Positions 37,179 to 57,972 of a stretch of 64,000 bases of DNA are shown here, in pieces. Origin of the DNA: an uncultured Planctomycetales bacterium (lineage in GTDB: Bacteria; 4484-113); the NCBI GenBank assembly GCA_964554185.1, contig CAZKNJ010000004.1, positions 3,699 through 67,698 of the forward strand, read 5' to 3'. The stretch's first letter is position 1. The number at the start of each line of letters is the position of its first letter. The notes below the pieces were generated by a model that was not told the DNA's origin, ran no database searches, and saw nothing but the letters and a program-made list of their open reading frames with translations. Position numbers and translations under genes: made by a program.

Positions 37179-37289
37179 GCGGTCGGTTGGTTGTGTTTAG
37201 AGACTACCGGGGCGCTGAGAAGTGGCCTGCGTGGTTGTGAAAGAGATTACTAGCCAACTGCAACATCGATTATTCCGGAGGACGTGAAA

Positions 37290-38540
37290 ATGGCTGAAGA
37301 ACTAAACCCGCGCCTGATGGCGCAGAAGCAGCTTGACGTTGCGGCCGAGCTGCTGGAATTGGACCGCGCCCAGCACAAGCGGCTGCGAGAGCCGCAGGTC
37401 GTCCTGGAAGTGTCGGTGCCGGTGAAGCTCGACGACGGACGGGTGGAGGTGTTCAAGGGCTGGCGCTCGCAGCACAACAACTTCCGCGGCCCCACCAAGG
37501 GCGGCGTGCGCTTTCACCCCGACACCTGCTACGACGAGGTGGTAGCGCTGTCTATGTGGATGACCTGGAAGTGCGCGCTGCTCAACCTGCCGTTCGGCGG
37601 CGGCAAAGGCGGCGTGCGCTGTAATCCTGCGGAGATGAGCATCGGGGAGATGGAGCGGCTTACGCGGCGTTACACTTTCATGATCAGCCCGATAATCGGG
37701 CCCGAGCGCGACATCCCCGCACCTGACGTCTACACCAATTCCCAGACAATGGCGTGGATGATGGACACCTACAGCATTCTGAAGGGCTACACCATTCCCA
37801 GCGTCGTGACCGGCAAGCCGCTGGACCTCGGCGGAAGCCAGGGACGCGTGGAAGCCACCGGACGCGGCTGCGTCATCTGCGTCCGCGAGGCGCTGAAGCA
37901 CCTGGGCATTGATCCGGCGACGACCACCGCAGCGGTTCAGGGCTATGGCAACGTCGGCTCCAACGCAGCGGTTCTGCTGGAGGAAATGGGCGTGAAGGTG
38001 GTGGCCGCGTCGGATGTGTTCGGTGCGATTCACTCCCCCGACGGGTTGGACACTCGCAAGCTCTGCGACCACGTGACCAAAACCGGCTCAGTAGTGAATT
38101 TCCCCGGCTCCTCTCCCATTTCGGCGGATGAGCTAATCGAAATGGAGGTGGATATCCTCGTTCCCGCTGCGTTGGAGAACGTCATCACCTCTAAGAACGT
38201 GGGCAAAATCAAAGCTAAGATTGTGTCCGAGGGCGCCAACGGCCCAACGACGCCAATGGCTGACAAGGTGCTGCACGAGAACGGCGTGTTCGTCGTCCCC
38301 GACATTCTGGCGAATGCGGGCGGCGTCACTGTCTCGTACTTCGAGTGGGTGCAGGACCTGTACCACTTCCAGTGGGATGAGGACCGCGTGAACAAGGAGC
38401 TGGAGAAGATGATGGTGAAGGCGTTCGCCGAAGTGCTGGCCGTCGCCCAGGAGAAGCGGGTGTGCAACCGCACCGCGGCTTACCTGCTGTCGGTTGCCCG
38501 GGTGGCACGTGCCGGCGCCGAACGCGGCATCTTCCCGTAA
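37290..38540 (+). CDS. gdh: glutamate dehydrogenase (small hexameric Glu/Leu/Phe/Val dehydrogenase family)
   Basis: KGGVRFHP..LSMWMTWKCALLNLPFGGGKGG catalytic Lys region; Rossmann GYGNVG; 416 aa. Confidence 0.85.
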   Translation: MAEELNPRLMAQKQLDVAAELLELDRAQHKRLREPQVVLEVSVPVKLDDGRVEVFKGWRSQHNNFRGPTKGGVRFHPDTCYDEVVALSMWMTWKCALLNLPFGGGKGGVRCNPAEMSIGEMERLTRRYTFMISPIIGPERDIPAPDVYTNSQTMAWMMDTYSILKGYTIPSVVTGKPLDLGGSQGRVEATGRGCVICVREALKHLGIDPATTTAAVQGYGNVGSNAAVLLEEMGVKVVAASDVFGAIHSPDGLDTRKLCDHVTKTGSVVNFPGSSPISADELIEMEVDILVPAALENVITSKNVGKIKAKIVSEGANGPTTPMADKVLHENGVFVVPDILANAGGVTVSYFEWVQDLYHFQWDEDRVNKELEKMMVKAFAEVLAVAQEKRVCNRTAAYLLSVARVARAGAERGIFP

Positions 38541-38773: not shown

Positions 38774-40996
38774 ATGTCTGAAGGGCGCAAGAACAAAAGG
38801 AAGCCGAATGGCGCTCCCGAAAAGGAACTGGAGAAGATCCACCGGGAGTATGCCGCCGTGTCGTCCATCTTCGAGATGGCGGGCGCGCTCATCATCGTGC
38901 TGGATACGCTGGGGCGGATAGTGCTGTTCAACCGCGCCTGCGAAGAGGTTACGGGATACCCGGCTGAGGAAGTTGAGGGGAAGGCGTTCTTTGACCTATT
39001 CATCCTGCCTGACGAGCTGAAGGGCGTCAAGGCTGTCTTCAAAGACCTGAAGTCGGACAAGTTCCCCAGCAAGTACGAGAACCACTGGCGCACAAAGAAT
39101 GGAGACCGTCGGCTGATCTCCTGGTCCAACACTGTGATGCACAGTGAATCCGGCGAGGTGGAGTTCATCGTCAGCATCGGCCTGGACATCACCGAGCGGA
39201 TGCAGGTGGAAGAGGAGCTTCAGCGCAAGTCCCACGACTTGGGCGAGCGGGTGAAGGAGCTTAACTGCCTGTATGGCATTTCGCGCCTGCGGGAAGACCC
39301 TAAGCTGTCGGTGGCCGAAATGCTGCAGAGGATTGTGGAACTGATACCGCCCGCATGGCACTATCCCGGGATTACCTGCGCCCGCATAAGTGTGAGCGGG
39401 AGCATTTTCACCACTGGTAATTTTGCAGAGACAAGCTGGCGGCAGCACAGCAAGGTTCAGGTTTACGGCGAGGACATCGGCACCGTTGAGGTTTTCTACC
39501 TGGAGGGAATGCCTGAACTGGACGAAGGGCCCTTCCTTGCTGAGGAGAGGAAGCTCATTGATGCCATCGCCGAGCGCATCGGACGCATTATTGAGCACCG
39601 CCAAACTGAAGCGCGTGCGAGGGAATACCAGGACGAGCTGCGCAGCCTGGCCTCGGAAATGGCGCTGGTGGAGGAGCGCGAGCGCCGGCGCATTGCGGTG
39701 GAGCTGCACGACCATGTGGGGCACGCGCTCGCCATCTCCAAGTTCAAGCTAGAGGATCTCCGTTCCACTACGGACGCGGAGGAGCTTGAACAGGCGATTG
39801 AGCTGATTGACGAGACCATCAAAAGCACACGGTCGCTCACATTTGAGCTGAGCCCGCCGGTGCTGCACGAGTTGGGGTTCATTGCCGCGTTGGATTGGCT
39901 CTGCAAGCAGATGCGCGACAAGCACGGGCTGAACGTTGAGTTCCGCGACGACGAAGTTCCCAAGCGGCTGGCCGAAGATACGCGCATGCTGGTTTTTCAG
40001 GCGATGCGCGAGCTGTTGGTGAACGCGGTCAAGCATTCGCGCGCGTCCCAAGTCCTGGTTCAGACCAAGAAGCTGAATGGCGATATCCAGGTTACGGTGG
40101 AGGATAACGGCGTTGGGTTTGACCCGTCGGCGGTGGCGGCAAGACGCGGAAAAGAAGGCGGCTTCGGGTTGTTCAACATGAGCGAGCGCCTGGGCTACTT
40201 GGGCGGACGGCTGGAAGTAGACTCCGCACCCGGCCGGGGCACGATTATTACGCTGATAGCTCCCCTCAAGGCTGACGGCGAATCACAGGCTCCACCTGCG
40301 CCAGCCATCGACCGGACGCGCGGCCTGAGGATCAAAGCCGACCGGCGCATCAAGATTCTACTGGCGGAGGACCACCAGATAACCCGCGAGGGCCTGCGCG
40401 CACTGCTGGAGAGGGAGCCGGACCTCAGTGTGGTCGCTGAGGCGGACAACGGTGCCAAGGCGGTCGAACTGGCGCTGGAGCATGCGCCGGATATAGTGAT
40501 AATGGACATCGCGATGCCAGAGATGAACGGGATCGAGGCCACGAAGCGCATAGTTGCGGAGCTACCTCAGACGAAGGTGGTCGCGCTGTCCATGCACGCG
40601 GACAAACACTACGTACTGGAGATGCTGCGGGCGGGCGCGTCAGGCTATTTGCTTAAGGACTGCGCGCAGGTGGACCTTGCCCGGGCGGTGCGAACGGTGG
40701 ACGCGAACCTGACCTTCCTCAGCCCGGAGATTGCCGACACGGTGGTGGAGGAGTATGCGCGCTACCAGTCGCATCAAGAACAGGCTGTGGCGTCGGTGCT
40801 CACTCCGCGCGAGCGTGAAGTGCTGGCGCTGCTGGCGGAAGGCAGCAACACCAAAGAAATCGGCCTGAAACTGGGCGTGAGCGTCAAGACGGTGGAAACC
40901 CATCGCCAGCACGTAATGGACAAACTCAACTTGCACAGCGTTGCAGAGCTTACGAAGTACGCTATTAAGGAAGGATTGATAGGCATAGAGGACTGA
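38774..40996 (+). CDS. hybrid sensor histidine kinase fused to a complete NarL/FixJ-type response regulator (PAS - GAF-like - HisKA_3 - HATPase_c - REC - LuxR HTH)
   Basis: PAS (LFNRACEEVTGYPAEEVEGKAFFDL), H-box LHDHVGHAL (HisKA_3), G-box GGFGLFNMSERL..GRGTI, REC (KILLAEDHQ...DIVIMDIAMPEMNG), LuxR HTH (LTPREREVLALLAEGSNTKEIG). Confidence 0.8.
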   Translation: MSEGRKNKRKPNGAPEKELEKIHREYAAVSSIFEMAGALIIVLDTLGRIVLFNRACEEVTGYPAEEVEGKAFFDLFILPDELKGVKAVFKDLKSDKFPSKYENHWRTKNGDRRLISWSNTVMHSESGEVEFIVSIGLDITERMQVEEELQRKSHDLGERVKELNCLYGISRLREDPKLSVAEMLQRIVELIPPAWHYPGITCARISVSGSIFTTGNFAETSWRQHSKVQVYGEDIGTVEVFYLEGMPELDEGPFLAEERKLIDAIAERIGRIIEHRQTEARAREYQDELRSLASEMALVEERERRRIAVELHDHVGHALAISKFKLEDLRSTTDAEELEQAIELIDETIKSTRSLTFELSPPVLHELGFIAALDWLCKQMRDKHGLNVEFRDDEVPKRLAEDTRMLVFQAMRELLVNAVKHSRASQVLVQTKKLNGDIQVTVEDNGVGFDPSAVAARRGKEGGFGLFNMSERLGYLGGRLEVDSAPGRGTIITLIAPLKADGESQAPPAPAIDRTRGLRIKADRRIKILLAEDHQITREGLRALLEREPDLSVVAEADNGAKAVELALEHAPDIVIMDIAMPEMNGIEATKRIVAELPQTKVVALSMHADKHYVLEMLRAGASGYLLKDCAQVDLARAVRTVDANLTFLSPEIADTVVEEYARYQSHQEQAVASVLTPREREVLALLAEGSNTKEIGLKLGVSVKTVETHRQHVMDKLNLHSVAELTKYAIKEGLIGIED

Positions 40997-41107: not shown

Positions 41108-41800
41108 ATGCGGACGGGCGGTGTTGGCCGCCGAATCCCCTGTGTGATGTGTATCGGCATACTTCTGGTTGACGACCACCGGATCTTCCGTGAGGGCTTG
41201 CGCGTCCTGCTGGAGAAGCAGCCGGGAATCCGCGTACTAGCAGAGGCCGAGGACGGCCGGCAGGCGGTGCAGCTTGCGCGTGAACACCATCCGGACGTCG
41301 TCATCATGGACGTTTCCATGCCGCAATGCAACGGCATCGAGGCGACCAAGCTGATAATGGCTGAAGCTCCGGGCACCAAGGTACTGGCGCTTTCCATCCA
41401 CAGCGATGGCAACTTCGTTATCGAGATGCTGCGGGCGGGCGCCGCCGGCTACCTGCTCAAGGACTGCTGCCACCAGGACCTCGCACGTGCCATCCGCACG
41501 GTGGACGCGAACGTCGTCTTTCTTAGCCCGTGTATCGCCCTGACCGCTGCCAAGGAGTACATCCGGCACAACTCCGGACCCAACGGCGACCGCAAGGTCA
41601 ACCTCACCGGCCGCGAAAAAGAGGTTCTACTGCGGCTGGCGGGGGGAAAGACAACCAAGGAAATCGCCCAGGAGTTTGGCGTCAGCGCGAAGACGATTGA
41701 AACCTACCGCTGGCGGCTGCGCCAGAAGCTCAACATGCGCAGCATGGCCGAGCTCACAAAATACGCCATTCGGCAAGGGCTGGTGAGCGTTGATTCGTAG
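41108..41800 (+). CDS. NarL/FixJ-family response regulator (REC + LuxR HTH), paralog of the kinase C-terminus
   Basis: RBS GAGGA 7 nt upstream; REC (ILLVDDHRIF..DVVIMDVSMPQCNG) and HTH (LTGREKEVLLRLAGGKTTKEIA); ~55% identical to residues ~525-740 of the upstream kinase. Confidence 0.8.
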   Translation: MRTGGVGRRIPCVMCIGILLVDDHRIFREGLRVLLEKQPGIRVLAEAEDGRQAVQLAREHHPDVVIMDVSMPQCNGIEATKLIMAEAPGTKVLALSIHSDGNFVIEMLRAGAAGYLLKDCCHQDLARAIRTVDANVVFLSPCIALTAAKEYIRHNSGPNGDRKVNLTGREKEVLLRLAGGKTTKEIAQEFGVSAKTIETYRWRLRQKLNMRSMAELTKYAIRQGLVSVDS

Positions 41801-42075
41801 CGCTGACAACCAGAATTCTGCCCGTGGCTGGAGCAAGTGCTTACGGCCTTCCGGCTCAGGCTATCAGGGATTCCCTGTCGGGAATTATCCAATTGTAAAT
41901 AGGTTGCATCTGCCTTATTCTCCGCTTGTGATGAATTGCACAAACCAAGACGGCAGCGGAGAGCCCAGTACCGGCGCAAGCTGGCGGGCCGAGGATGCTG
42001 TTTTCATGCTTGCGGAGCATGTGTTCTCCGCGACCACGCCGGAGTTTTCCGGCGGATATTAATGGAGGATTCAAC

Positions 42076-42393
42076 ATGTCAACTGTAAGGCCAATCAGCA
42101 CGAAAGAAGTGGTTGTCTCCGCTGAGGAGATTAAAGGTCTTTGCGCGACCTGCAACGCTGCAAGCGATTGCGCCATCCGCAAGGACTGCAACAAACCCAT
42201 CTGGTTCTGCGAGGAGTTTGACGACTACGTGGTCGTCGCCGACCGGACCCCCAAACAGGCTCCTCCGCGCCGTGAAGCGTCGGCGAAGCCCAACGGCGGC
42301 TCGCAGGGCATCTGCAGCAACTGCTCGACCCGCCAGAACTGCAGCTACCGGACGCCGGGCTCGGAAATCTGGTTCTGTGAGGACTACAGCTAG
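42076..42393 (+). CDS. small Cys-rich protein with two tandem C-x2-C-x5-C...WFCE(E/D) motifs
   Basis: ATG 42076 after RBS GGAGGA; 105 aa; repeats GLCATCNAASDCAIRKDCNKPIWFCEEFDDY and GICSNCSTRQNCSYRTPGSEIWFCEDYS. Confidence 0.55.
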   Translation: MSTVRPISTKEVVVSAEEIKGLCATCNAASDCAIRKDCNKPIWFCEEFDDYVVVADRTPKQAPPRREASAKPNGGSQGICSNCSTRQNCSYRTPGSEIWFCEDYS

Positions 42394-42457
42394 GCTTTGC
42401 CCAAAAGGGCAGCCGCGGCTGCTTTGATTCTGCAACCCATCCACTGGTGACAGCGAT

Positions 42458-43288
42458 ATGGATCCTGAACAGGCACTGACTCCGCAAACCCGCAATGGCG
42501 AGATGGACGGACTCATCTCGCTGCTGGAGCGCATCCAGGCCAGGTACAACTACCTGCCGGAGGAGGCTCTGCGCGAAGTATCCGAGACCACCGGCCGCTC
42601 CCTCGTGGACATCTACGGCGTGGCAACCTTCTATAGGGCGTTCAGCCTGAAGCCGCGCGGCAAACACCTCGTGTCCGTCTGTCTGGGCACGGCGTGCCAT
42701 GTGCGCGGCGGCCCGGCGATTGCCGAGGAATTTGAGCGCCGGCTGGGGATACGGGCTGGCGAAACCACCGACGACCGCGAATTCACGCTGGAAACGGTGA
42801 ACTGCCTGGGAGCCTGCGCACTCGGGCCGGTTGCGGTGGTCAACGGCAAGTACTTCTCGAAGGTGCGCAGGTCGGAAGTCAAGGAGATCATCCGGCAAGT
42901 CCTATCGGGCGCGGAAGAGATTGATCTTGCCACCGACCAGCGTGTCATTCCAGTGGAAGTTAACTGCCCCCGCTGCAACCACAGCCTAATGGACTCCAGC
43001 CACCTCGTTGACGGCCTGCCGTCCATCCGGGTCAGCATCACTTTCGGGCGGGTTCACGGGTGGATGTGTTTGTCCGCGCTCTATGGAAGCTACAACGTCG
43101 TGTCGGAGTACCCGTTGCCGGCGAATGCGGTTATTCACTTCTTCTGCCCCCATTGCCACGAGGAGCTGTCGGGGCCGGTCGAATGCCCGGAGTGCGGCGC
43201 GCCGATGGTGCGGATGATTGTCCGCGGGGGCGGCGTCTTACAGGTATGTTCGCGTAAGGACTGCAAGGCCCACACGCTCGACATTTGA
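42458..43288 (+). CDS. NuoE/HoxE-like thioredoxin-fold [2Fe-2S] protein with C-terminal zinc-ribbon-like extension
   Basis: CLGTACHVRG...CLGACALGP (2Fe-2S ligands of the 24 kDa subunit family); extra ~120 aa with CPRC..x..FFCPHCHEEL..CPECGAPM. Confidence 0.75.
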   Translation: MDPEQALTPQTRNGEMDGLISLLERIQARYNYLPEEALREVSETTGRSLVDIYGVATFYRAFSLKPRGKHLVSVCLGTACHVRGGPAIAEEFERRLGIRAGETTDDREFTLETVNCLGACALGPVAVVNGKYFSKVRRSEVKEIIRQVLSGAEEIDLATDQRVIPVEVNCPRCNHSLMDSSHLVDGLPSIRVSITFGRVHGWMCLSALYGSYNVVSEYPLPANAVIHFFCPHCHEELSGPVECPECGAPMVRMIVRGGGVLQVCSRKDCKAHTLDI

Positions 43289-43338
43289 CCGTGAACGATG
43301 CTGACCGGATGCTTGACTAACTACTGAGGGAACACTGG

Positions 43339-46300
43339 ATGCAACGAGTCTCAACACTTGCTGATTTCTCGAACCTCCGGCGGATGATTCTCGGAGAACC
43401 ACAGAAGGATATGCCATGTCTCGTCGTATGCGCGGGCACTGGTGGCCAGGCCAGCGGCTCCAACGACATCATCCGTATCATCAAGCGCCAGATCATTGAG
43501 AAGAGCTACCAGGAGCGCATGTCGCTGCGCATCACCGGCTGCCAGGGCTTCTGCGAGATGGACCCGTTCATTCTCGTGGAGCCGGCGCTCAACCTCTACC
43601 CGCTCTTGAAAATGGAGGATGTGCCGCGCGTGATTGACGCAGTGGCGCAGGGGCGCGTGCTGGAGGATCTGCTTTACAAGGGGACTGGCGAGCGGAAATG
43701 CTACCACTGCCAGAACGACATTCCCTTCTTTAAGAAGCAGACGCGCACCATCCTGGGGAAGAACGAGCAAATCGATCCTATCCGCCTGTACGACTACATC
43801 CGGTGCAATGGCTACGCTGCGCTGGAGAAAGTGCTGGAAGACCCCAAGCCGGGGTGGGTCATTGAGGAAGTGAAGCGCTCCGGCCTGCGCGGCCGCGGTG
43901 GCGCCGGATTCCCTACTGGAAAGAAGTGGGAGTTGGCGCGGGCTTCCGGCAACGGCGCGGGCCAGAAATACGTGGTCTGCAACGCGGACGAAGGTGACCC
44001 CGGCGCCTATATGGACCGCAGCCTGCTTGAAGGCAATCCGCACGCCATCATTGAGGGAATGCTCATCGCCGGCATCGCCATCGGCGCGACCAAGGGTTTC
44101 ATCTACGTGCGCAGCGAGTATCCATTAGCCATTAAGCACACGCTCATTGCGTTGCAGCAGGCCGGCGAGATGGGGCTGCTGGGCAAGAACATACTGGGCA
44201 CTGGCATCGATTTCGACATTGAGATCGTGCGCGGCGCCGGCGCGTTTGTCTGCGGAGAGGAAACCGCGCTCATAAGGTCAATTGAAGGACTCATGGGTGA
44301 GCCGCGCCAGCGCCCGCCTTACCCAATAGTGAAGGGCATCTGGGGCCATCCCACCTGCATCAATAACGTTGAGACCCTGGCGAATGTGCCGGTAATAATC
44401 CGTGACGGCGCGGACGAGTACGCCAAAGTCGGCGTGCCGGGCAACACCGGAACCAAGATATTCAGCCTGGTCGGCAAGATACGCAACACCGGCCTGGTGG
44501 AAGTCCCGATGGGAATCACCATCGGCGAAATCGTCTACGACATCGGCGGCGGCCCCGTGGGCGAGGCCAAGATCAAGGCGGTGCAGACCGGCGGGCCCTC
44601 CGGCGGCTGCATCCCCGCGAGCATGTTTGACCTGCCCATTGACTACGACAGCCTGACCAAAGCGGGCTCCATTATGGGCAGCGGCGGCATGATCGTGATG
44701 GACGAGAACACCTGCATGGTGGATGTCGCCAAGTACTTCATGGGCTTCCTGAAAGACGAGTCCTGCGGCAAGTGCTTCACCTGCCGCAAGGGCACGCAGC
44801 GGATGTGGGAGCTGCTGGACGACATCACCAAGGGGCGCGGCACGCTCGCCCACCTAGACTTGCTGGAGGAACTGGCGCTGGTGGTGAAGGACACCACCAT
44901 GTGCGGCCTGGGGCAGTCGGCGCCCAATCCCGTGCTCAGCACTCTCAAGTATTTCCGCGAGGAGTACGAAGAACATATTCTGGAGAAGCGCTGCCGCGCC
45001 TTCGTCTGCAAGGAGCTGGTGGGTGCGCCCTGCCAGACCGCCTGCCCGCTGGGCACCGAGGCCTGGCGCTATGTGGCGCACATCGCCCGGGGCGAATACG
45101 AGGACGCGTACACGGTTATCCGCGAAGCCAACCCCTTCCCCTCGGTGTGCGCCCGCGTGTGCAGCCACCCGTGCGAGAGCCACTGCCGCAGCGGCGTCGT
45201 GGGCACGCGCCCAATCGCCATCCGCGCGCTGAAGCGCTTCATCACCGACCGCATTGACCCGTCGGTGTACACGCCGAAGCGTGACCAGGCCAAGCGCCCG
45301 GAGCGTGTGGCCGTGGTCGGCTCCGGCCCGGCCGGAATGGCAGCCGCGCATTACCTTTCGCTCAAGGGCTATCCGGTGACCGTGTTTGAGGCGCTGCCGG
45401 AGCCGGGCGGGATGCTCATCAGCGGTATCCCCTCCTACCGGCTGCCGCGCGAAACTCTGCGCAAAGAAATCGCCTCGCTAGTGGACGAAAATGTGGCGGT
45501 TGAATGCGGCAAGGCGCTGGGCAAGGACTTCACAGTGGATGGCTTGTTCGGCGACGGCTATAAGGCGGTATTCCTGGCGATGGGCGCCCACAAGAGCCGC
45601 AAGCTCAATGTCGCGGGCGAAGACCTCAAGGGCGTCCATCCGGCGATTGAGTTCCTGAAAGCGTGGAACCTCCGCAGCGAGCAGCTTGCCACCGGCCACG
45701 TGGGCGTCATCGGCGGCGGGGACTCGGCGGTGGATGCTGCGCGCGTCGCGCTGCGCCAGCCCGGCGTGAAGAGCGTGACCATCTTCTACCGGCGCACGCG
45801 CAACGAGATGCCTGCGCTGGCGGAGGAAGTTGATGCGGCGCTGGACGAGGGCATTAAGCTGGAGGCGCTGGTCTCGCCGCTGAAGATACATGCGGAGATT
45901 GAAGAAGGCGTGCCCGGCGAGGAGCTGGAGACGCCGCTGAAGATGACCTCCAAGGAGGCCCGCGTCACCGGTGTGGACTTCATCCGCAACGAGCTGGGCG
46001 CGGTGGACGCCAGCGGCCGGCGCAATCCAGTGCCGCTCAAGGGCAGCGAGTTCACCGCCAAACTGGACACTCTTATCGTCACCATCGGCGACGTTCCCGA
46101 TATTGATTACGTGGCGGACATGGGCCTGGCCGTCAGCAAATGGGGCACTCTCGTCTGCGACGAAGACACTCTGCTGACTAGCCGCGAAGGCGTTTTCGCT
46201 GGCGGCGATGTCGTCACCGGTCCAAACACTGTGGTGGAAGCGATTGCAGCCGGCAAGAAAGCCGCCGTGATGATCCACCGCTTCCTGCGCAGCGAGCCGC

Positions 46301-46575
46301 TGAAGCAGCCCGCACAGGTGAAGCTGCCTGAGGTGCTGGTGGAGCCCGTGATGCTGGACGAGGAGGAGCTGGAGACCGCCGAGCGGGTGGAACCGCCGCG
46401 CATCGCGCCGGAACGCCGCGCGGCCGGCTTTGACGAGGTTGAGCTCACGCTCACGGTGGAGGACGCAACGCGCGAAGCCCGTCGCTGCTTGCGCTGCGAC
46501 CTGGAGTTCACCCAGCGGCGGTACGACGATGATGAGCTGGAAGCTCCCATCCCCGTGGAGAAGGTGGCCCGCTGA
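43339..46575 (+). CDS. NuoF-like NAD(P)H-binding FMN/4Fe-4S flavoprotein with N-terminal NuoE-like domain and C-terminal GltD-like FAD/NAD(P)-binding domain (triple fusion)
   Basis: N-term Cys pairs (PCLVVCAG, GCQGFCEM); NuoF core (GRGGAGFPTGKKW, VCGEETALIRSIEG, ESCGKCFTCRKGT); 2x Cys clusters (CQTACPLG.., CARVCSHPCESHC); Rossmann VAVVGSGPAGMAAAHYL and second GVIGGGDSAVD. Confidence 0.8.
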   Translation: MQRVSTLADFSNLRRMILGEPQKDMPCLVVCAGTGGQASGSNDIIRIIKRQIIEKSYQERMSLRITGCQGFCEMDPFILVEPALNLYPLLKMEDVPRVIDAVAQGRVLEDLLYKGTGERKCYHCQNDIPFFKKQTRTILGKNEQIDPIRLYDYIRCNGYAALEKVLEDPKPGWVIEEVKRSGLRGRGGAGFPTGKKWELARASGNGAGQKYVVCNADEGDPGAYMDRSLLEGNPHAIIEGMLIAGIAIGATKGFIYVRSEYPLAIKHTLIALQQAGEMGLLGKNILGTGIDFDIEIVRGAGAFVCGEETALIRSIEGLMGEPRQRPPYPIVKGIWGHPTCINNVETLANVPVIIRDGADEYAKVGVPGNTGTKIFSLVGKIRNTGLVEVPMGITIGEIVYDIGGGPVGEAKIKAVQTGGPSGGCIPASMFDLPIDYDSLTKAGSIMGSGGMIVMDENTCMVDVAKYFMGFLKDESCGKCFTCRKGTQRMWELLDDITKGRGTLAHLDLLEELALVVKDTTMCGLGQSAPNPVLSTLKYFREEYEEHILEKRCRAFVCKELVGAPCQTACPLGTEAWRYVAHIARGEYEDAYTVIREANPFPSVCARVCSHPCESHCRSGVVGTRPIAIRALKRFITDRIDPSVYTPKRDQAKRPERVAVVGSGPAGMAAAHYLSLKGYPVTVFEALPEPGGMLISGIPSYRLPRETLRKEIASLVDENVAVECGKALGKDFTVDGLFGDGYKAVFLAMGAHKSRKLNVAGEDLKGVHPAIEFLKAWNLRSEQLATGHVGVIGGGDSAVDAARVALRQPGVKSVTIFYRRTRNEMPALAEEVDAALDEGIKLEALVSPLKIHAEIEEGVPGEELETPLKMTSKEARVTGVDFIRNELGAVDASGRRNPVPLKGSEFTAKLDTLIVTIGDVPDIDYVADMGLAVSKWGTLVCDEDTLLTSREGVFAGGDVVTGPNTVVEAIAAGKKAAVMIHRFLRSEPLKQPAQVKLPEVLVEPVMLDEEELETAERVEPPRIAPERRAAGFDEVELTLTVEDATREARRCLRCDLEFTQRRYDDDELEAPIPVEKVAR

Positions 46576-47252
46576 TGATCACACTCACGATAAACGGACT
46601 GGAAGTGCAGGTGGAAGAGGGCACCACGCTCCTGGAGGCGGCGCAGTTCCTTGGCTTCCCCATTCCGACGCTGTGCCACATGGAAGGGCTGTCGCCCTAC
46701 GGGGCCTGCCGCCTGTGCGTGGTGGAAATCGGCCGGGAGCCAAACACCAGGCTCGTTTCCTCATGCACTTACCCCGCCGAAGAAGGCTTGAATGTGCGAA
46801 CCGCCACGAGCCGCGTAGTGCGTGCGCGCAAGATGGTGCTGGAGCTGTTGCTCGCCACCTGCCCGCAGTCCAAGGTAATCCAGGACCTCGCCGCGGCGCA
46901 CGAGATTCGCCAGCAGCGGTTCCGCCAGGAGCACGAGGACTGCATTATGTGCGGGCTGTGCGTGCGGATGTGCGAGGAGCAGATGATGGCCAAGGCCATC
47001 GGCTTCCGCGGGCGCGGCGAGAAACGCACGCTGGGCACGCCCTTTGATATCCGCAGCGAGGAATGCCGGCTCTGCGGCGGCTGCATGTATGTCTGCCCCG
47101 CCTGCCAGCTGCGCTGCACCTACAACGAGCCGGAGAAGGCCATCTGCGGCGGCTGCGCCAACCTCAGCCCGCCGTGCCTGGAGAAAGACGAATTCGACGA
47201 CATGATGTGCTACATGCAACCCTGTGTCGCCTGTGAAATAAAGAAGGAATGA
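46575..47252 (+). CDS. NuoG-N-terminal-like ferredoxin (2Fe-2S + 4Fe-4S clusters), no catalytic domain
   Basis: LTINGLEVQVEEGTTLLEAA...CRLCVVEI (2Fe-2S fold as in HydA/NuoG N-termini); CIMCGLCVRMCEE and CRLCGGCMYVCPAC. Confidence 0.7.
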   Translation: MITLTINGLEVQVEEGTTLLEAAQFLGFPIPTLCHMEGLSPYGACRLCVVEIGREPNTRLVSSCTYPAEEGLNVRTATSRVVRARKMVLELLLATCPQSKVIQDLAAAHEIRQQRFRQEHEDCIMCGLCVRMCEEQMMAKAIGFRGRGEKRTLGTPFDIRSEECRLCGGCMYVCPACQLRCTYNEPEKAICGGCANLSPPCLEKDEFDDMMCYMQPCVACEIKKE

Positions 47253-47270
47253 GAAACCTACAAGGAGACC

Positions 47271-48959
47271 ATGATGTGGACGACCTTTTCCAGAGTTAAC
47301 TCTTCGGCTGCAACCCTGACCAAGAACCGCACCGAGGGCTCGGTCACGCCGAGTTCCGGCATGTGCGTAACTTGCGTGGATGGCTGCATCGGTATGTGCG
47401 AAATCGGCAAGTCCGCCTACCGAGGGCACGAGGTCATCTACCCGCAGCCGTTCGGCGTGATAACGACCGCCGCGGAAAAAACCTACCCGGTGGACTACTC
47501 CCATTTCAACATCATGGGCACCGCCGTCGGGGCGCACGGCATTGAGGCCGATTCGGACAAGGCCGTGTTCCCGGCGGTGGACCTCACCGTAACCTTCGGC
47601 CACGACAACGGGCTGAAGTTCAAGCTGCCCATAATGATCCCCGGCATCGGCTCCACCAACATCGCCAAGAACAACTGGGAGGGCCTGGCCATCGGCACCG
47701 CGCTGGCGGGCACCGGCCTGACCATCGGCGAGAACGTGGTGGGCATGGATCCCGAATCGACCATCAAGAACGGCCGGGTGGTGGATACGGTGGACCTCAA
47801 GCGCCGGGTGAAGCTGTTTACCGACCACCAGCGCGACGGCTGGGGCGCCATCATCGTCCAGTCCAACATCGAGGACACGCGGCTGGGGGTGCAGGAGTAC
47901 GCCATCGGCGAGCTGGGCGTGGAATGTGTGGAGCTTAAGTGGGGGCAGGGCGCCAAGGACATCGGCGGCGAGGTCAAGATCCGCGAGCTGAAGAAGGCCC
48001 AGCTGCTCTACGAGCGCGGCTATGTAGTGCTGCCAAACCCGACCGACCCCAATGTGATAAAGGCCTTTGAGCGCGGCGCGTTCAAGGAGTTTGAGCGCCA
48101 CTCGCGCGTGGGCATGGTCACGGAAGAGGGCTTCGCCCAGCGGGTGGACGAGCTGCGCAAAGCCGGCGCCAAGTACATCTTCCTCAAGACCGGCGCCTAC
48201 CGGCCGGCCGACCTCGCGCGCGCGGTGAAGTACGCGTCCAAGTACCGCCTTGACCTGCTCACCGTGGACGGCGCGGGCGGCGGCACCGGCATGAGCCCCT
48301 GGCGCATGATGAACGAGTGGGGCGTCCCGCCGGTGGAACTGCACTCGCTGCTCTACGAATACTGCAAGGAGCTGCACGACCGCGGCGAGCACGTTCCCGC
48401 CGTCACCGTCGCCGGCGGCTTCACCTTTGAGGACCAGATGTTCAAAGGCCTGGCGCTGTGCGCGCCGTTCGCCAAGCTAATCGGCATGGCGCGCAGCCCC
48501 ATCGCCGCCGCGATGGTAGGCAAGACCATCGGCCGCACGATTGACCAGAACCAGGTGCCGGTGTACGTTGAGCGGTTCGGCAACACGAAGGACGAGATAT
48601 TCGTCACCGCGGCCGACCTGCGCCACGAGCTGGGCGACGACGAGTTTGAGCGCATCCCGACCGGCGCGCTGGGCCTCTACACCTACTACGAGCGGCTCGC
48701 GCAGGGCCTGCGCCAGTTGATGGCGGGCAACCGCAAGTTCGCCCTGAAGTACATTGAGCGCGACGACATCGCGGCGCTGACGCACGAGGCGGCCGACATC
48801 AGCGGTATCACCTACATCATGGACGTGGACAAGGCCGAGGCAGCGAAGATACTCGGCGCCAACGGCAAGGGCTCAAAGAAGGCTGCGGCGTCGGCGAAGC
48901 CCGCCGCCAAGAACGACGGCAAGCGCACACCGGCTTCCAAGTCCGGCGCGAAGAAGTAA
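47271..48959 (+). CDS. archaeal-type GltB: glutamate synthase FMN-binding (domain 2) family protein with N-terminal Cys cluster
   Basis: CVTCVDGCIGMCEIG N-terminal cluster; TIM-barrel FMN domain signatures incl. DGAGGGTGMSPW (cf. GGTGASP of GltS); C-terminal Lys/Ala-rich tail. Confidence 0.65.
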   Translation: MMWTTFSRVNSSAATLTKNRTEGSVTPSSGMCVTCVDGCIGMCEIGKSAYRGHEVIYPQPFGVITTAAEKTYPVDYSHFNIMGTAVGAHGIEADSDKAVFPAVDLTVTFGHDNGLKFKLPIMIPGIGSTNIAKNNWEGLAIGTALAGTGLTIGENVVGMDPESTIKNGRVVDTVDLKRRVKLFTDHQRDGWGAIIVQSNIEDTRLGVQEYAIGELGVECVELKWGQGAKDIGGEVKIRELKKAQLLYERGYVVLPNPTDPNVIKAFERGAFKEFERHSRVGMVTEEGFAQRVDELRKAGAKYIFLKTGAYRPADLARAVKYASKYRLDLLTVDGAGGGTGMSPWRMMNEWGVPPVELHSLLYEYCKELHDRGEHVPAVTVAGGFTFEDQMFKGLALCAPFAKLIGMARSPIAAAMVGKTIGRTIDQNQVPVYVERFGNTKDEIFVTAADLRHELGDDEFERIPTGALGLYTYYERLAQGLRQLMAGNRKFALKYIERDDIAALTHEAADISGITYIMDVDKAEAAKILGANGKGSKKAAASAKPAAKNDGKRTPASKSGAKK

Positions 48960-48975
48960 CGATCAACCCTCTCGC

Positions 48976-49066
48976 TGCGCCCGCCGGGGCACCAGGCTTC
49001 GGTGGGCGCTGCGGGCGTTTTCCCTTATTCCCTGCAATCACGGGCTCCTGCGAAGGAGCCCGTTTG
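48976..49066 (+). terminator. tandem rho-independent terminator hairpins after the GltB-like gene
   Basis: cgcccgc...gcgggcgTTTTccc (48976-49024) and gggctcct-gcga-aggagccc-gTTTg (49042-49066). Confidence 0.45.
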
Positions 49067-49100: not shown

Positions 49101-49475
49101 CTATCCCAGCGCTTTTTTCAGCGCATCCAGCATCTTGGCGGGGTCGACAAGCTTCACCTTTTTCGCGGCGGTCCCAAGCAGCTTCTTGGCGTCCTCGTGC
49201 AGCTCTTTGGGAACCGCCAACAGTACCGGTACGTTGTAGTTGAAGCAGCTCTGCAGGATGTCCTCGGTGCTGGCCTCCCAGCGCGGCGGCGCCACTACTT
49301 TGTGCAGGTAGCCGATAACCGCATGCACTTTGTCCTTGCCGCTGAAGAGGCGCACGTTCTTGCCGTGGCCGTCGTAGCCGTTGCTCACCGGCAGCGTGTC
49401 ATGCCCCCGGGCTACGAGGCTGGTGAGCCACACCGGGTCTGTCCCTTCGAAGTAACCGACTACTTTACGATTCAT
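49101..49475 (-). CDS. hypothetical protein
   Basis: Start at ATG 49475 (MNRKVVGYFEG..), 124 aa; no family recognised. Confidence 0.4.
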   Translation of the reverse strand: MNRKVVGYFEGTDPVWLTSLVARGHDTLPVSNGYDGHGKNVRLFSGKDKVHAVIGYLHKVVAPPRWEASTEDILQSCFNYNVPVLLAVPKELHEDAKKLLGTAAKKVKLVDPAKMLDALKKALG

Positions 49476-50257: not shown

Positions 50258-51616
50258 TTAGACGACGCCCTGATCCATCATCGCGTTGGCGACCTTTAGG
50301 AAGCCGGCGATGTTGGCGCCGTTGACATAGTTGCCCGGCGTGCCATAGGCCTCGGCGGTCTCAAAGCACGCCTTGTGGATTGAAATCATGATGTTGTGGA
50401 GCTTCTCGTCCACTTCGTTGCGCGTCCAGGAAGTGTGCCCCGCGTTCTGCGCCATCTCCAGGCCGCTGGTGGCCACGCCGCCGGCGTTGGCCGCCTTGCC
50501 CGGGCCGTAGAGGATCTTCTTCGCGACGAAGTGCTCAACGCCTTCCGGCACCGTGGGCATATTGGCGCCCTCGCTGACGACAAACACGCCGTTCTTGACC
50601 AGCGCTTTGGCGTCGTCCACCGAAACCTCGTTCTGGGTGGCGCTGGGGAAGGCGCACTGCGCACCCTCAACCTGCCACACGCCGGTGCCTTCGTGGAACT
50701 CGCACTTGTACTTCGCGGCATACTCCTTGATGCGGCCGCGCTTGACGTTCTTCAGCTCCATCACGTACGCGAGCTTCTCCTCGTTGATACCATCGCGGTC
50801 AACAATGAAGCCAGCGGAGTCGGAGAGGGTGATGCATTTCCCGCCGAGGTGGCTGACCTTCTCCACGGTGTACTGCGCGACGTTGCCGGAGCCGGAGACC
50901 AGGCAGGTCTTGCCTTTGACGCTGTCGCCGCGGGTGCGCAGCATTTCCTCCGCGAAGTACACCGCGCCGTAGCCGGTGGCCTCCGGGCGGATGAGGCTGC
51001 CGCCCCACGCCAGGCCCTTGCCGGTCAACACGCCCTCAAAGCGGTTGACGATGCGCTTGTACTGGCCGAACAGGAAGCCGATCTCGCGCCCGCCCACGCC
51101 GATATCGCCGGCGGGGATGTCGGTGCGGCCGCCGATGTGGCGGAAGAGCTCCGTCATGAAGCTCTGGCAGAAGCGCATAACCTCTCTATCGGACTTGCCC
51201 TTGGGGTCGAAGTCGGAGCCGCCCTTGCCGCCGCCGATGGGGATGGTGGTCAAAGCGTTCTTGAAAACCTGCTCAAATCCCAGGAACTTGAGAATGCCCA
51301 GATTTACTGTAGGGTGGAAACGCAATCCGCCCTTGTACGGGCCGATCGCGCTGTTGAATTCCACGCGGAAACCGCGGTTAACCTGAACACGCCCCTCATC
51401 GTCCGTCCAGGGCACACGGAACAGAATCACGCGCTCCGGCTCCACGATGCGCTCGAGAATCCGCGCTTCTTTGTATTCCGGGTGCCGTTCCAGCGCCAAC
51501 TCCAGCGATTCCACGACCTCGCGTACGGCCTGGTGGAACTCCTTTTCGCCGGGATTCTTGGCGATTAAGCCCTCCATGAAGGAGTCAACCCACTGTGACA
51601 TTCGGAAGACCTCCAA
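50258..51616 (-). CDS. gdhA: NADP-specific glutamate dehydrogenase (large ~450-aa GdhA type)
   Basis: IPIGGGKGGSDFDPKGKSD catalytic region, Rossmann GSGNVAQY; 452 aa (alt start at MSQW, 51601). Confidence 0.85.
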   Translation of the reverse strand: MEVFRMSQWVDSFMEGLIAKNPGEKEFHQAVREVVESLELALERHPEYKEARILERIVEPERVILFRVPWTDDEGRVQVNRGFRVEFNSAIGPYKGGLRFHPTVNLGILKFLGFEQVFKNALTTIPIGGGKGGSDFDPKGKSDREVMRFCQSFMTELFRHIGGRTDIPAGDIGVGGREIGFLFGQYKRIVNRFEGVLTGKGLAWGGSLIRPEATGYGAVYFAEEMLRTRGDSVKGKTCLVSGSGNVAQYTVEKVSHLGGKCITLSDSAGFIVDRDGINEEKLAYVMELKNVKRGRIKEYAAKYKCEFHEGTGVWQVEGAQCAFPSATQNEVSVDDAKALVKNGVFVVSEGANMPTVPEGVEHFVAKKILYGPGKAANAGGVATSGLEMAQNAGHTSWTRNEVDEKLHNIMISIHKACFETAEAYGTPGNYVNGANIAGFLKVANAMMDQGVV

Positions 51617-57923: not shown

Positions 57924-57943
57924 AGGAGCCACCTCCTAGATAT

Positions 57944-57951
57944 TTATCGGC
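57944..57951 (-). promoter_or_regulatory. sigma-28-type -10 element (GCCGATAA) in front of fliD
   Basis: minus strand reads gttGCCGATAAatatctAGGAGGtggctcctATG; no good TAAA -35. Confidence 0.3.
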
Positions 57952-57972
57952 AACGCGCGCGTTAAGGGCAGC

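Follow-up and report, generated by a model that had tools for sequence, protein, structure and literature searches.

What reaction is carried out by the product of an operon that combines NuoE-, NuoF- and NuoG-like proteins with a GltD-like module and a protein resembling the FMN domain of glutamate synthase (GltS)? The operon lies in a stretch of 64,000 nucleotides, called the window here, and had been predicted to encode an undescribed complex of the glutamate synthase type. No description of the five-gene module was found in the open-access literature, in agreement with this original prediction. Our best reading, to which we give about even chances, is that of one enzyme of the Bfu type (type 2), in which a GltS-like subunit would handle the third substrate, likeliest 2-oxoglutarate + NH3 / glutamate.

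Layout of the operon

The list of open reading frames (ORFs) of the window contains five genes on the same strand, between 42076 and 48959, with gaps of 64, 50, −1 and 18 nt. ORF coordinates and Pfam confirmed these genes, their gaps and the domains originally proposed for them. The features of the region are as follows.

37284..38540, + strand: glutamate dehydrogenase (GDH), archaeal/Gdh type (Pfam, NCBIfam)
38774..40996, + strand: hybrid sensor kinase/regulator with PAS, an unnamed sensor domain, HisKA_3, HATPase, REC and LuxR-type HTH (GerE) (Pfam)
41108..41800, + strand: REC + LuxR-type (GerE) response regulator (Pfam, NCBIfam)
42076..42393, + strand: Cys-rich mini-protein, 105 aa (ribosome-binding site; within ORF 41995-42393)
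42458..43288, + strand: BfuC/HydC-like [2Fe-2S] subunit, 276 aa (Pfam, PDB match)
43339..46575, + strand: BfuB/HydB-like NADH/FMN subunit fused to a GltD/NfnL-like module, 1078 aa (Pfam, PDB)
46575..47252, + strand: short BfuA-like subunit, 225 aa (Pfam, PDB match)
47271..48959, + strand: putative catalytic subunit, GltS-like FMN TIM barrel, 562 aa
48971..49063, + strand: two GC-rich hairpins 3′ of the stop codon, probable terminators
50258..51616, − strand: NADP-specific glutamate dehydrogenase, GdhA type, convergent, 1.3 kb downstream (NCBIfam)

The two terminators proposed to close the unit correspond to two strong hairpins beyond the stop codon. The U-rich tract UUUUCCCUUAUU comes after the first (48971-49015, −38.9 kcal/mol, z −4.6), and the second covers 49040-49063 (z −4.7); a simple terminator scan called neither of them. 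The Pfam scan, which covered ~45 proteins of the window (40 different ORFs), gave no hydrogenase, formate dehydrogenase (FDH), amidotransferase or GXGXG domain, whether in the operon or elsewhere among them; for the operon, this had been noted of the H-cluster, FDH catalytic and amidotransferase domains.

Conservation of the operon

The five-gene operon is found nearly unchanged in hundreds of anaerobic bacterial species. Gene order was BfuC-BfuB-BfuA-GltS-like in all 78 informative loci, i.e. those with enough upstream sequence, from more than 15 phyla; the hosts are Planctomycetota, Zixibacteria, Acidobacteriota, Ignavibacteria, Bacteroidota, Syntrophales, Scalindua, Latescibacterota and others. 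The NuoG-N-like gene stands directly upstream of the GltS-like gene in 78/78 loci, 18 to 150 nt away, and is preceded by NuoE-like and NuoF-like genes wherever the contig reaches. The neighbourhood comparison called for by the original prediction thus showed genes co-conserved as a unit, and no hydrogenase or FDH catalytic subunit, the other adjacent gene to be looked for, recurs near the related loci.

Median identity of the GltS-like subunit is 81% across loci and phyla, with synonymous sites saturated (14-59% identity at four-fold sites, gene GC of 39 to 67% across loci), which strongly suggests that this putative catalytic subunit is under strong functional constraint. BfuA has the same median identity across loci (81%), these being the two most conserved proteins of the set.

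Affinities of the electron-input subunits

The NuoE-, NuoF- and NuoG-like parts had been read as an electron input of the HydABC type, and this part of the prediction stands: by sequence, they are closest to BfuC, BfuB and BfuA of the electron-bifurcating Bfu family, namely to HydC, HydB and WorA. They do not belong to complex I, for which the window has a canonical nuo operon at 1-10724.

The BfuC-like protein (276 aa) matches 2Fe-2S_thioredx (3e-46), with [2Fe-2S] Cys 75, 80, 116 and 120, and has an extra conserved C-terminal region of ~125 aa with zinc-ribbon matches (DZR, Pfam); tblastn matches extend to residue 276 in most loci. Its best PDB matches are HydC/NfnC of bifurcating enzymes (e.g. 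8a6t_C, 5e-42). The BfuA-like protein (225 aa) contains Fer2_4 (4e-18) and a 4Fe-4S dicluster domain (Pfam), with [2Fe-2S] Cys 34, 45, 48 and 64, two CxxCxxCxxxC [4Fe-4S] motifs and an 8-Cys C-terminal tail; the His-ligated cluster motif is absent from its sequence. WorA of WorABCSL is its best PDB match (9mqx_A, 247 aa; 8.5e-35 over residues 2-190).

In the 1078-aa BfuB-like protein, Pfam finds a weak N-terminal 2Fe-2S_thioredx, Complex1_51K (3e-45), NADH_4Fe-4S (7e-33), Fer4_20 (3e-23) and Pyr_redox_2 (9e-29), with the following parts.

nt 43417-43644, + strand: N-terminal thioredoxin-like Cys domain
nt 43870-44391, + strand: FMN/NADH domain
nt 44722-44976, + strand: [4Fe-4S] B1
nt 44977-45255, + strand: GltD-type 2x[4Fe-4S]
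nt 45304-46254, + strand: FAD/NAD(P)H domain

PDB scores are 650 bits against bifurcating HydB/NfnB and ~365 bits against NuoF of complex I, and the N-terminal thioredoxin-like domain and RC-x4-CKEL motif align with bifurcating HydB/NfnB. For the GltD part, the nearest relatives are the NfnL-like domains of NfnA and of the Stn homologue; dihydropyrimidine dehydrogenase (DPD) was also matched. In 13 of 64 loci, BfuB is a 616-aa protein without GltD module, ending in a canonical 2x[4Fe-4S] ferredoxin domain (B3/B4); 51 of the 64 loci, and the window itself, lack this domain. The ferredoxin-facing C-terminal domain of the window BfuB is swapped for an NADPH-type GltD/NfnL module. As GltD is not constant, its pairing with GltB is not the core logic of the system. 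Coupling to ferredoxin is least likely in the window, because the ferredoxin-binding domain of BfuB is the replaced part.

The GltS-like subunit

The 562-aa protein matches Glu_synthase (PF01645) with 49 bits, above the cut-off, its residues 282-400 aligning on profile positions 185-300 of 369, so that its proposed membership in this family holds, with remote similarity. No NCBIfam model matched, and phmmer against the PDB gave no match at E≤0.01, the best being an unrelated decarboxylase (0.013). The family profile reached GltS in the PDB at E = 0.13 only, local hhalign gave 77% probability, and Foldseek placed glycolate oxidase level with GltS. Several motifs are collinear with E. coli GltB (562-aa protein / GltB): IGENVVGMDPE / IGGNSNSGEGGEDP, VQSNIEDTRLGV / KQVASGRFGV, ELKWGQGAK-x-x-GGE / QIKVAQGAKPGEGGQ and DGAGGGTGMSP / GYDGGTGASP. 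Glu occupies the position of the GGQ Gln of GltS, and an Arg that we take to bind the substrate in GltS is not obviously kept. The GltS [3Fe-4S] motif is absent. The protein has a new N-terminal four-Cys motif (C32-x2-C35-x3-C39-x3-C43, nt 47364-47399) and, after residue 530, a low-complexity Lys/Ala tail.

Among 1.84 billion representatives, no more than 1062 clusters at 50% identity match the protein by phmmer. Relatives with 31-54% identity are stand-alone genes, without Nuo-like neighbours, and give no functional hint. The protein is a distant homologue of the GltS FMN domain, in a compact family that is separate from GltS. The label "archaeal-type GltB", given originally, is not borne out by the number of clusters and the profile score.

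Comparison with known systems

WorABCSL, the tungsten aldehyde oxidoreductase-Bfu of Acetomicrobium mobile (PDB 9MQX), is a type 2 Bfu enzyme with a BfuB-BfuC core, both subunits of which also match strongly, and a short BfuA (~230-250 aa). WorA is without the His-ligated A3 cluster, and its Cys-rich C-terminus recruits/docks a separate catalytic module. In the window, a GltS-type FMN TIM barrel takes the place of the tungstopterin WorSL as partner, BfuB has a GltD/NfnL module instead of the ferredoxin domain, and a BfuC zinc-ribbon domain and a Cys-rich mini-protein come in addition. The Nfn-Bfu transhydrogenase NfnABC/Stn (PDB 9BOV, 9N5U, 8OH5) joins a Bfu core and a GltD/NfnL-like module with FAD, NADP(H) and two [4Fe-4S], the nearest relative of the window GltD part. 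In NfnABC/Stn, BfuA carries the module, which supplies the mid-potential path, and BfuB has a ferredoxin domain. In the window, the module occupies the place of this domain at the BfuB C-terminus, and a further catalytic subunit is present.

GltBD (PDB 1EA0, 6S6S, 7MFM) and Fd-GltS (1OFD) have the FMN TIM barrel with QGAK, GG and DG-x-GGTG-x-SP. GltBD also shares with the window a GltD-type NADPH/FAD/2x[4Fe-4S] partner and a functional link to GDH, for which the GltAB-GudB complex (7MFM) may be compared. In contrast, the operon has no amidotransferase domain, GXGXG domain or [3Fe-4S] motif and has the new four-Cys motif; sequence similarity is marginal, GltD is missing in 13 loci, and electrons would come via HydABC-type subunits. 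The predicted F420-dependent glutamate synthases of methanogens and ANME are FrhB-GltS fusions, named FGltS in the literature and not purified there. One of them, P0264 (37% identity, Cys motif region included), belongs to the same divergent GltS-like family; its barrel is fused to 2x[4Fe-4S] and an FrhB F420-binding module. Such a fusion is a further case of the barrel being fed by a swapped input module, with F420 as input, a single polypeptide, archaeal hosts and a predicted activity, as against NADH/NADPH/ferredoxin here. In DPD (PreTA/DPD), Fe-S clusters conduct electrons from a GltD-like NADPH/FAD/2x[4Fe-4S] module, which matches the window GltD part, to the FMN TIM barrel, where a small substrate is reduced (PMC8097209). 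Unlike the window system, DPD has a barrel of the DHODH family, no NuoE/F/G-type module, and two subunits or a single chain.

Glutamate dehydrogenase genes around the operon

The operon had been described as flanked by two GDH genes. Both are there. Of the 82 related loci, 11 also have GDH genes within 10 kb, either next to the operon or inserted in it, on top of the two of the window; a rough estimate for a random gene is <1%. GDH is the sole recurrent metabolic neighbour, which favours a link to glutamate. It lies inside the operon in L052 and L064, between the mini gene and BfuC, while L004, L014, L034, L037, L045, L054 and L071 have a GdhA-type GDH (58-73% identity) on a flank of the operon. 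The downstream GDH of the window (50258-51616) scores 755 bits with NF006929 (NADP-specific GdhA; equivalog cut-off 536), and is not adjacent as had been implied, since three ORFs intervene. The upstream GDH (37284..38540) is associated with the operon rather than a component of it. A 136-aa minus-strand ORF and a Phd/ParE toxin-antitoxin pair are located between operon and downstream GDH.

Proposed reaction and alternatives

The operon product would be a single soluble flavoenzyme with several subunits and iron-sulfur clusters, a member of the Bfu (HydABC-like) family, with Bfu parts in the roles described for them (PMC9304861, PMC11829005, PMC12318220). Its BfuB-BfuC core would bind NAD(H) at FMN, and the short WorA-like BfuA would connect this core to the extra catalytic subunit, hence a "type 2" architecture. 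The catalytic subunit would probably accept single electrons via a cluster on the N-terminal four-Cys motif, its FMN then exchanging two electrons with a substrate that is a small carboxylate. The likeliest chemistry would be reduction to glutamate of the imine of 2-oxoglutarate and free ammonia, or the reverse. We infer an ammonia-dependent amination of 2-oxoglutarate; if true, the enzyme is an amidotransferase-less glutamate synthase. The 13 short-form loci keep the ferredoxin-reducing C-terminal clusters of BfuB, so that NADH, ferredoxin and substrate would be coupled there in the manner of other Bfu enzymes. The window and most relatives have the GltD/NfnL module (two [4Fe-4S], FAD, NAD(P)H site) in place of the ferredoxin domain, and the window version would have NADH, NADPH and the substrate as its three two-electron stations. 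From the GDH equilibrium, we calculate a standard potential of ~−130 mV for 2-oxoglutarate + NH4+ / glutamate, far above the usual third substrates of Bfu enzymes (near −400 mV, PMC9304861), so that bifurcation is not obviously needed. A neighbouring GDH, with the same net reaction, also looks redundant, which speaks against our best reading.

The same Bfu and GltS-like architecture might use another third substrate, which we regard as possible but unlikely: 2-oxoglutarate/2-hydroxyglutarate, another 2-oxo or imino acid, a compound of the N-alkyl-glutamate type or an unrelated low-potential acceptor. Glycolate oxidase equalling GltS in Foldseek, the Glu in GGQ, the presumed substrate-binding Arg not being obviously kept, a compact family apart from GltS and the low potential of typical third substrates would all fit, and GDH might merely supply 2-oxoglutarate or NAD(P)H. 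Yet the motifs are GltS-specific and not of the alpha-hydroxy-acid oxidase type, GDH is alone among recurrent metabolic neighbours, and no hydroxyglutarate-pathway or other pathway genes recur around the loci. We likewise regard it as possible but unlikely that the fused variant of the window is a non-bifurcating, linear reductase, dependent on NADH and/or NADPH, like NADPH-GltS or DPD, running from pyridine nucleotide through flavin, Fe-S chain and FMN to the substrate with Bfu-like features as inherited baggage. BfuB retains the bifurcation-type N-terminal domain and RC-x4-CKEL site, which are not in non-bifurcating NuoF homologues (PMC9304861), the window already has a canonical NuoF that is not of the Bfu type, two separate pyridine-nucleotide sites are hard to account for in such an enzyme, and sibling loci hold a ferredoxin domain at the same position. 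What suggests such a reductase is the absence of B3/B4 in most loci, deletion of this domain abolishing bifurcation in HydABC (PMC11829005), together with the usual role of GltD-like modules, which is simply to let in electrons from NAD(P)H (PMC8097209), and the high potential of the glutamate couple.

It is very unlikely, in our opinion, that two independent enzymes share the operon, namely an Nfn/Stn-like transhydrogenase made up of BfuC, BfuB-NfnL and the short BfuA, and a ferredoxin-dependent GltS-like enzyme, even if relatives of the 562-aa protein stand alone and the three large subunits encoded ahead of it in the window variant already hold an NADH and an NADPH site. BfuA and GltS-like genes are invariably adjacent and encode the best conserved proteins, a WorA-type short BfuA exists to dock a separate catalytic partner, the short form without the GltS-like subunit would have no third substrate, and the window variant is without the ferredoxin site required for the Nfn reaction.

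Mini-protein and sensor kinase

For the mini gene the most likely start is 42076, with GGAGGA 7 nt upstream, the ORF itself opening at 41995. The mini-protein, without match in Pfam or NCBIfam, contains two repeats of GLC-x2-C-x5-C-x(7-12)-[WYF]-x-CE-[EQ]-[YF], with C23, C26, C32, C45, C80, C83, C89 and C101 invariant. Homologues were found directly upstream of the NuoE-like gene (36 loci), the exception being L019, where the copy is downstream of the operon. The mini-protein would be an accessory metal-binding partner.

Of 55 loci, 17 have a sigma-54 promoter upstream of the mini gene (background 0.06 per kb), and the position of the response regulator is occupied in most other loci by a sigma-54-dependent regulator. 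These regulators are generic AtoC/NtrC-like proteins, scoring below the equivalog cut-offs (NCBIfam). The PAS histidine kinase reported ahead of the locus can be tied to the operon by its 135-aa sensor domain (nt 39239-39646, motif ER-x-KEL-x-CLY), which has no Pfam match. Outside the window, tblastn detects the domain in 36 related loci, ~30 of them with a copy in a kinase upstream of the operon and ~7 with one in downstream PPDK_N proteins. The domain is thus common to the kinases of other loci, and expression of the operon would be controlled by a kinase whose sensor domain is dedicated to it.

Organisation of the operon

The operon at 42076-48959 (forward strand) encodes, in this order, a 105-aa Cys-rich mini-protein, a 276-aa NuoE-like protein, a 1078-aa NuoF-GltD fusion, a 225-aa protein resembling the N-terminal part of NuoG, and a 562-aa protein related to the FMN domain of glutamate synthase (GltS-like). 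The middle three are named here BfuC, BfuB and BfuA, after the subunits of the HydABC-like electron-bifurcating (Bfu) family, whose cluster sites are B1-B5, C1 and A1-A4. All five genes were found where the original prediction had placed them, with the same gaps (64, 50, -1 and 18 nt), and every domain that it had claimed for them was recovered by Pfam. For the mini gene, 42076 is the most likely start, as a GGAGGA ribosome-binding site precedes it; the AF2 model of its product (pLDDT 43) was of too low quality for use. The predicted terminators were found as two stable hairpins 3′ of the stop codon (z about -4.6 each), the first with a U-rich tail. Pfam searches of the operon and of the other scanned window ORFs returned no hydrogenase, formate dehydrogenase (FDH) or amidotransferase domain, as had been stated, and no GXGXG domain.

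Both glutamate dehydrogenase (GDH) genes and the kinase/regulator pair said to surround the operon are real, as judged with Pfam and NCBIfam, but the downstream GDH gene is not adjacent to it, as the following elements lie in between:
49101-49511, reverse strand, 136-aa ORF without family match
49693-50140, forward strand, Phd/YefM antitoxin and ParE toxin pair

Conservation and distribution

The window proteins were compared by tblastn with 82 related loci, taken from metagenomes and from species-representative genomes. In all 78 loci with enough sequence, the GltS-like gene directly follows the BfuA-like gene, as expected if the gene order is co-conserved, and where the contig extends far enough, NuoE-like and NuoF-like genes lie upstream of the BfuA-like gene. 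Homologues of the mini gene were detected in 36 loci. They precede the NuoE-like gene in each of these except one planctomycetotal locus (L019), where the homologue (12252-12560) lies downstream of the GltS-like gene. Locus L065 carries at 14363-14920, about 3 kb downstream of a full operon, a partial second GltS-like gene with 78% identity to window residues 345-530.

Median protein identity of the related loci to the window
GltS-like: 81% (range 76-85)
BfuA-like: 81%
BfuB: 64%
BfuC: 61%
Mini-protein: 33%

The family comprises at least 8000 clusters at 90% identity and occurs in at least 597 species-representative genomes. Hosts are mostly uncultured anaerobes of sediments and bioreactors, from Planctomycetota, Zixibacteria, Acidobacteriota, Ignavibacteria/Bacteroidota, Latescibacterota, KSB1, Marinimicrobia, Verrucomicrobiota, Syntrophales, Syntrophorhabdus, Scalindua and others. 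For the putative catalytic subunit of a metabolic enzyme, an identity of about 81% across phyla seems unusually high. Four-fold degenerate sites are 14-59% identical, in step with GC3, and the GC content of the genes ranges from 39 to 67%. Since synonymous sites have reached saturation and the GC content has adjusted to that of each host, the high protein identity reflects an old divergence under very strong purifying selection, and recent horizontal spread was rejected as its cause on the same grounds. The evidence for a conserved unit is strong, and the degree of conservation is surprising.

Electron-input subunits of the Bfu type

In BfuB, Pfam found Complex1_51K (3e-45), NADH_4Fe-4S (7e-33, site B1) and SLBB (2e-4, under its own cut-off). 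Compared with PDB sequences, its first 600 residues score 650 bits to the B subunits of bifurcating enzymes with solved structures (NiFe-HydB 7t2r_B, HydB 7q4v, NfnB 9n5u, WorB 9mqx); for NuoF of complex I the score is about 365 bits. The N-terminal thioredoxin-like domain of HydB (B5) aligns with residues 28-102, with Cys 27, 31, 68 and 72 present and the second Cys of the GTGC motif replaced by Gly, and RC552-x4-C557KEL aligns with HydB RCPAKIC, the B2 Cys site. The B5 domain and the B2 site are absent from non-bifurcating NuoF (PMC9304861). BfuC (2Fe-2S_thioredx 3e-46; Cys 75, 80, 116 and 120, site C1) is closest in the PDB to HydC and NfnC, with HydC 8a6t_C as best match. Its residues 150-276 (window 42905-43285) form an added Cys-rich double zinc-ribbon of about 125 aa that is kept across the related loci, whereas solved HydC and NfnC subunits (154-189 aa) are without it. 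BfuA contains Fer2_4 (4e-18) and Fer4_7 (6e-8), and its best PDB match is WorA (9mqx_A, 247 aa), the short “type 2” BfuA of WorABCSL, which lacks the His-ligated A3 and whose Cys-rich C-terminus docks a separate catalytic module.

Thus the features by which Bfu enzymes are recognised, i.e. the Nuo51/B1 domains and B5/B2 features of BfuB, the [2Fe-2S] site of BfuC and the [2Fe-2S] and 4Fe-4S sites of BfuA, are all found here; the exception in the window is the C-terminal ferredoxin-type 2x[4Fe-4S] domain of BfuB (B3/B4). As predicted from sequence, the operon proteins would belong to the Bfu family with this one exception, and coupling of three substrates, NAD(H) and ferredoxin among them, is putative.

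The operon could also have been the N-module (NuoEFG) of complex I. A canonical complex I set is nevertheless present at window 1-10724, with a partial nuoF (3′ part), full-length nuoG, and nuoH, J, L, M and N, and its NuoF stops directly after the [4Fe-4S] domain, with none of the added domains of the Bfu type. Because of this separate nuo operon, the Bfu-type genes are paralogues; together with their far higher scores to HydABC-type subunits, which agree with the electron-input type originally proposed, this led us to reject the N-module reading. A standard N-module and Bfu-type paralogues therefore coexist in this organism. A role as accessory to a hydrogenase or FDH was rejected too, as no such catalytic neighbour recurs across the 82 loci.

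Two versions of BfuB

The 5′ part of the operon is complete in 64 loci, and two forms of BfuB were found among them. In 13, BfuB is a short form of 616 aa that ends with the canonical ferredoxin-type 2x[4Fe-4S] domain (two CxxCxxCxxxCP motifs); hosts are mostly Planctomycetota, Verrucomicrobiota and Scalindua, with single loci in Zixibacteria, Riflebacteria and Terriglobia. In the other 51, as in the window, a GltD/NfnL module stands in place of the ferredoxin domain. Past residue 546, window BfuB continues with a GltD-type Fer4_20 and then an FAD domain; residues 547-1010 most resemble the NfnL-like NADPH/FAD/2x[4Fe-4S] domain found in NfnA and in its Stn homologue, followed by GltD and DPD. 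Since the module replaces the ferredoxin domain in the fused loci and is missing from the 13 others, it does not constantly accompany the GltS-like subunit, and the pairing of GltD with a GltB-like protein that had been proposed is not what the system is built around. In Bfu enzymes, BfuB's C-terminal domain holds clusters B3/B4, the low-potential electron route to ferredoxin, and its deletion abolishes bifurcation (PMC11829005). The GltD module stands in for this ferredoxin arm. The two versions thereby form a natural experiment, ferredoxin arm versus NADPH-flavin module, that bears on the low-potential branch of Bfu enzymes.

In the known Nfn-Bfu/Stn enzymes, the NfnL/GltD-like module is carried by BfuA, BfuB has a ferredoxin domain, and there is no further catalytic subunit. 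In the operon, by contrast, the module is fused to BfuB, BfuA is just 225 aa long, and the GltS-like subunit is always present. By these features, the operon falls outside Nfn-Bfu/Stn.

A divergent glutamate synthase-like subunit

The 562-aa protein matches PF01645 (Glu_synthase) with 49 bits for a cut-off of 20.4, over residues 282-400, which cover only 116 of the 369 profile positions. No NCBIfam model matched. Searched exhaustively with phmmer, a set of 1.84 billion representatives gave no more than 1062 matching clusters (50% identity) for the protein, and its nearest full-length relatives share 30-54% identity with it. Five distant relatives (P0121, P0122, P0125, P0130 and P0154) are stand-alone genes, whose context is uninformative on function, and one relative is fused to an FrhB F420-binding module. 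Conserved in the family are an N-terminal C-x2-C-x3-C-x3-C (C32-x2-C35-x3-C39-x3-C43) and the motifs KWGQGAK-x-x-GGE, FERHSR and DGAGGGTGMSP.

The AF2 model (pLDDT 83, pTM 0.84) consists of a TIM barrel and a C-terminal helical domain. Foldseek ranked ferredoxin-dependent GltS first (1ofd_A, E 3.7e-10), level with glycolate oxidase and IDI-2. At the sequence level, phmmer against PDB sequences gave nothing useful, and a 21-sequence family profile retrieved mostly de novo TIM barrels from the PDB, with GltS only at E = 0.13. Local hhalign against the E. coli GltB FMN domain gave 77% probability, restricted to the FMN-phosphate region; at low mact, and at this setting only, the whole barrel was collinear with the GltS signature motifs in register, which is suggestive. 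Lys972, Arg992 and Gln978, to which we presume roles in GltS, served only as a lead. The region that aligns with the GltS [3Fe-4S] motif C-x5-C-x4-C (CKYLRICHLNNC in E. coli) contains no Cys, and the N-terminal four-Cys motif is conserved instead. Pfam detected no GXGXG beta-helix domain (PF01493) in the protein, whose model ends helical, and the Ntn glutamine amidotransferase domain of GltS, absent from the operon and the scanned window ORFs, is not a recurrent neighbour in the 82 loci either. We conclude that the protein is probably a divergent relative of the FMN domain of GltS whose Fe-S site would have moved, and not GltB in the usual sense. Of the designation “archaeal-type GltB”, the homology to the GltS FMN domain is suggested by PF01645 and the motifs; “archaeal-type” was not demonstrated, and the lack of the [3Fe-4S], GXGXG and amidotransferase elements speaks against a usual GltB.

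Recurrent neighbours and regulation

Clustering of all flank ORFs of the loci defined three recurrent neighbours: a kinase with a sigma-54 regulator, GDH, and PPDK_N-domain proteins. GDH is found near the operon in 11 loci; it lies directly before or after it on the same strand in L004, L014 and L037, and between the mini gene and BfuC in L052 and L064 (Scalindua). A sigma-54 promoter (TGGCAY-N5-TTGCW) precedes the mini gene in 17 of 55 loci, for a background of 0.06 per kb. In the window, LuxR-type regulators take the place of the sigma-54 regulator, a pattern scan found no sigma-54 promoter, and the sigma-70 scan gave a single weak match, within the last operon gene. Around the operon of the window and those of four other loci, no riboswitch or other Rfam element was found. 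The regulators are generic AtoC/NtrC-like proteins; they score under the equivalog cut-offs, and their assignment as NtrBC was rejected for this reason.

The window kinase carries a sensor domain of about 135 aa with the motifs ER-x-KEL-x-CLY, PPGWxYP and EGPFL-x-EE, for which we found neither a Pfam match nor an existing name. Examples, with coordinates within each locus, are:
Window, 38774-40996, kinase, with the sensor domain at 39239-39646
L001, 2079-2456, sensor domain
L008, 6632-7051, sensor domain
L044, 10512-10931, sensor domain

It is common to the kinases of about 30 other loci, which ties the window regulators to the operon. Three kinds of output go with it: sigma-54 two-component kinases, the window's LuxR-type hybrid kinase, and PPDK_N proteins, at whose N-termini it occurs; it is also found as stand-alone hypothetical proteins of 190-214 aa. 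The PPDK_N proteins (large; ATP-grasp, of the PEP-utilising-enzyme type) are present in 12 loci, mostly downstream of the operon, and not in the window; examples are:
L002, 11630-13882
L008, 6554-9802
L036, 11675-13972
L044, 10482-13241
L046, 11734-14901
L081, 3630-6464
L054, 11659-14658, reverse strand
L071, 2736-5738, reverse strand

In some, the N-terminus bears the same sensor domain or a REC domain, and the C-terminus a nucleotidyltransferase domain. A second regulatory layer is a possible role for these proteins.

Proposed mechanism and substrate

The subunits of the operon would form one complex, in which NAD(H) would bind at the FMN of BfuB. Electrons would pass through B1/C1, then through A1, A2 and A4 of BfuA and its Cys-rich tail, and so reach the GltS-like subunit at its four-Cys site and FMN. 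A second arm would lead to ferredoxin in the short form, and to FAD and NADP(H) in the window.

For the substrate of the GltS-like subunit, we favour 2-oxoglutarate and NH3/glutamate, to which the GltS motifs and the GDH linkage point. Two objections weigh on this choice: the standard potential, which we calculate from the GDH equilibrium at about -130 mV, is higher than is usual among Bfu third substrates, and GDH performs the same net reaction as the one proposed. At micromolar NH4+, the potential of the same 2-oxoglutarate + NH4+/glutamate couple becomes about -340 to -370 mV (own calculation), in the range of other Bfu third substrates, so that confurcating, ATP-free, high-affinity assimilation would be thermodynamically sensible. 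A different 2-oxo or 2-hydroxy acid as third substrate is a serious alternative; so is a window complex that works as a non-bifurcating linear reductase, a reading to be set beside the B5 and B2 features of BfuB on one side and its missing B3/B4 domain on the other.

The most novel proposal is that the operon encodes an ATP-independent, high-affinity, ammonium-assimilating and ammonia-dependent glutamate synthase, pooling electrons of NADH with those of a lower-potential donor; this donor would be reduced ferredoxin for the short form and, for the fused one, NADPH. We consider this proposal unlikely as it stands. If it were true, confurcation would spare energy-limited anaerobes the ATP that GS-GOGAT consumes in making glutamate; the neighbouring GDH would be used when ammonium is high, with the dedicated sensor kinase as the switch between both enzymes.

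Relation to known Bfu enzymes

Third substrates described for the Bfu family are H2, formate, NADPH, F420, aldehydes, pyruvate, CO, aryl-CoA, quinone and H2O2, and 17 clades were left unassigned in its classification, whose text and supplement do not mention glutamate synthase (PMC9304861). Among open-access papers and preprints, we found no description of the BfuC-BfuB-BfuA-GltS-like module, and an earlier account may exist elsewhere. The product of the operon is probably an enzyme of the Bfu type whose catalytic module is new; the window version has a new BfuB-NfnL fusion as well. The five-gene observation of the original prediction is confirmed by these analyses, its interpretation only in part. 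Such an enzyme would add a functional class to the Bfu family and tie bifurcation machinery to the central metabolism of nitrogen and carbon. Its entries in databases bear generic names (“FMN-binding glutamate synthase family protein”, “glutamate synthase domain-containing protein 2”); as the GltS-like subunit is annotated solely under the first of these, metabolic reconstructions ignore the operon or may count it as GOGAT.

Other features of the window

The following were observed away from the operon:
11709-12278, forward strand, NIL-domain and 4Fe-4S dicluster protein, beside the next
12324-14015, reverse strand, methylmalonyl-CoA mutase large subunit
62929-62992, reverse strand, Rfam DUF3800-IX sRNA match (53.6 bits, gathering score 36.8)
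54048-60753, reverse strand, unusually long flagellar genes, with FliD of 1294 aa and flagellin of 906 aa
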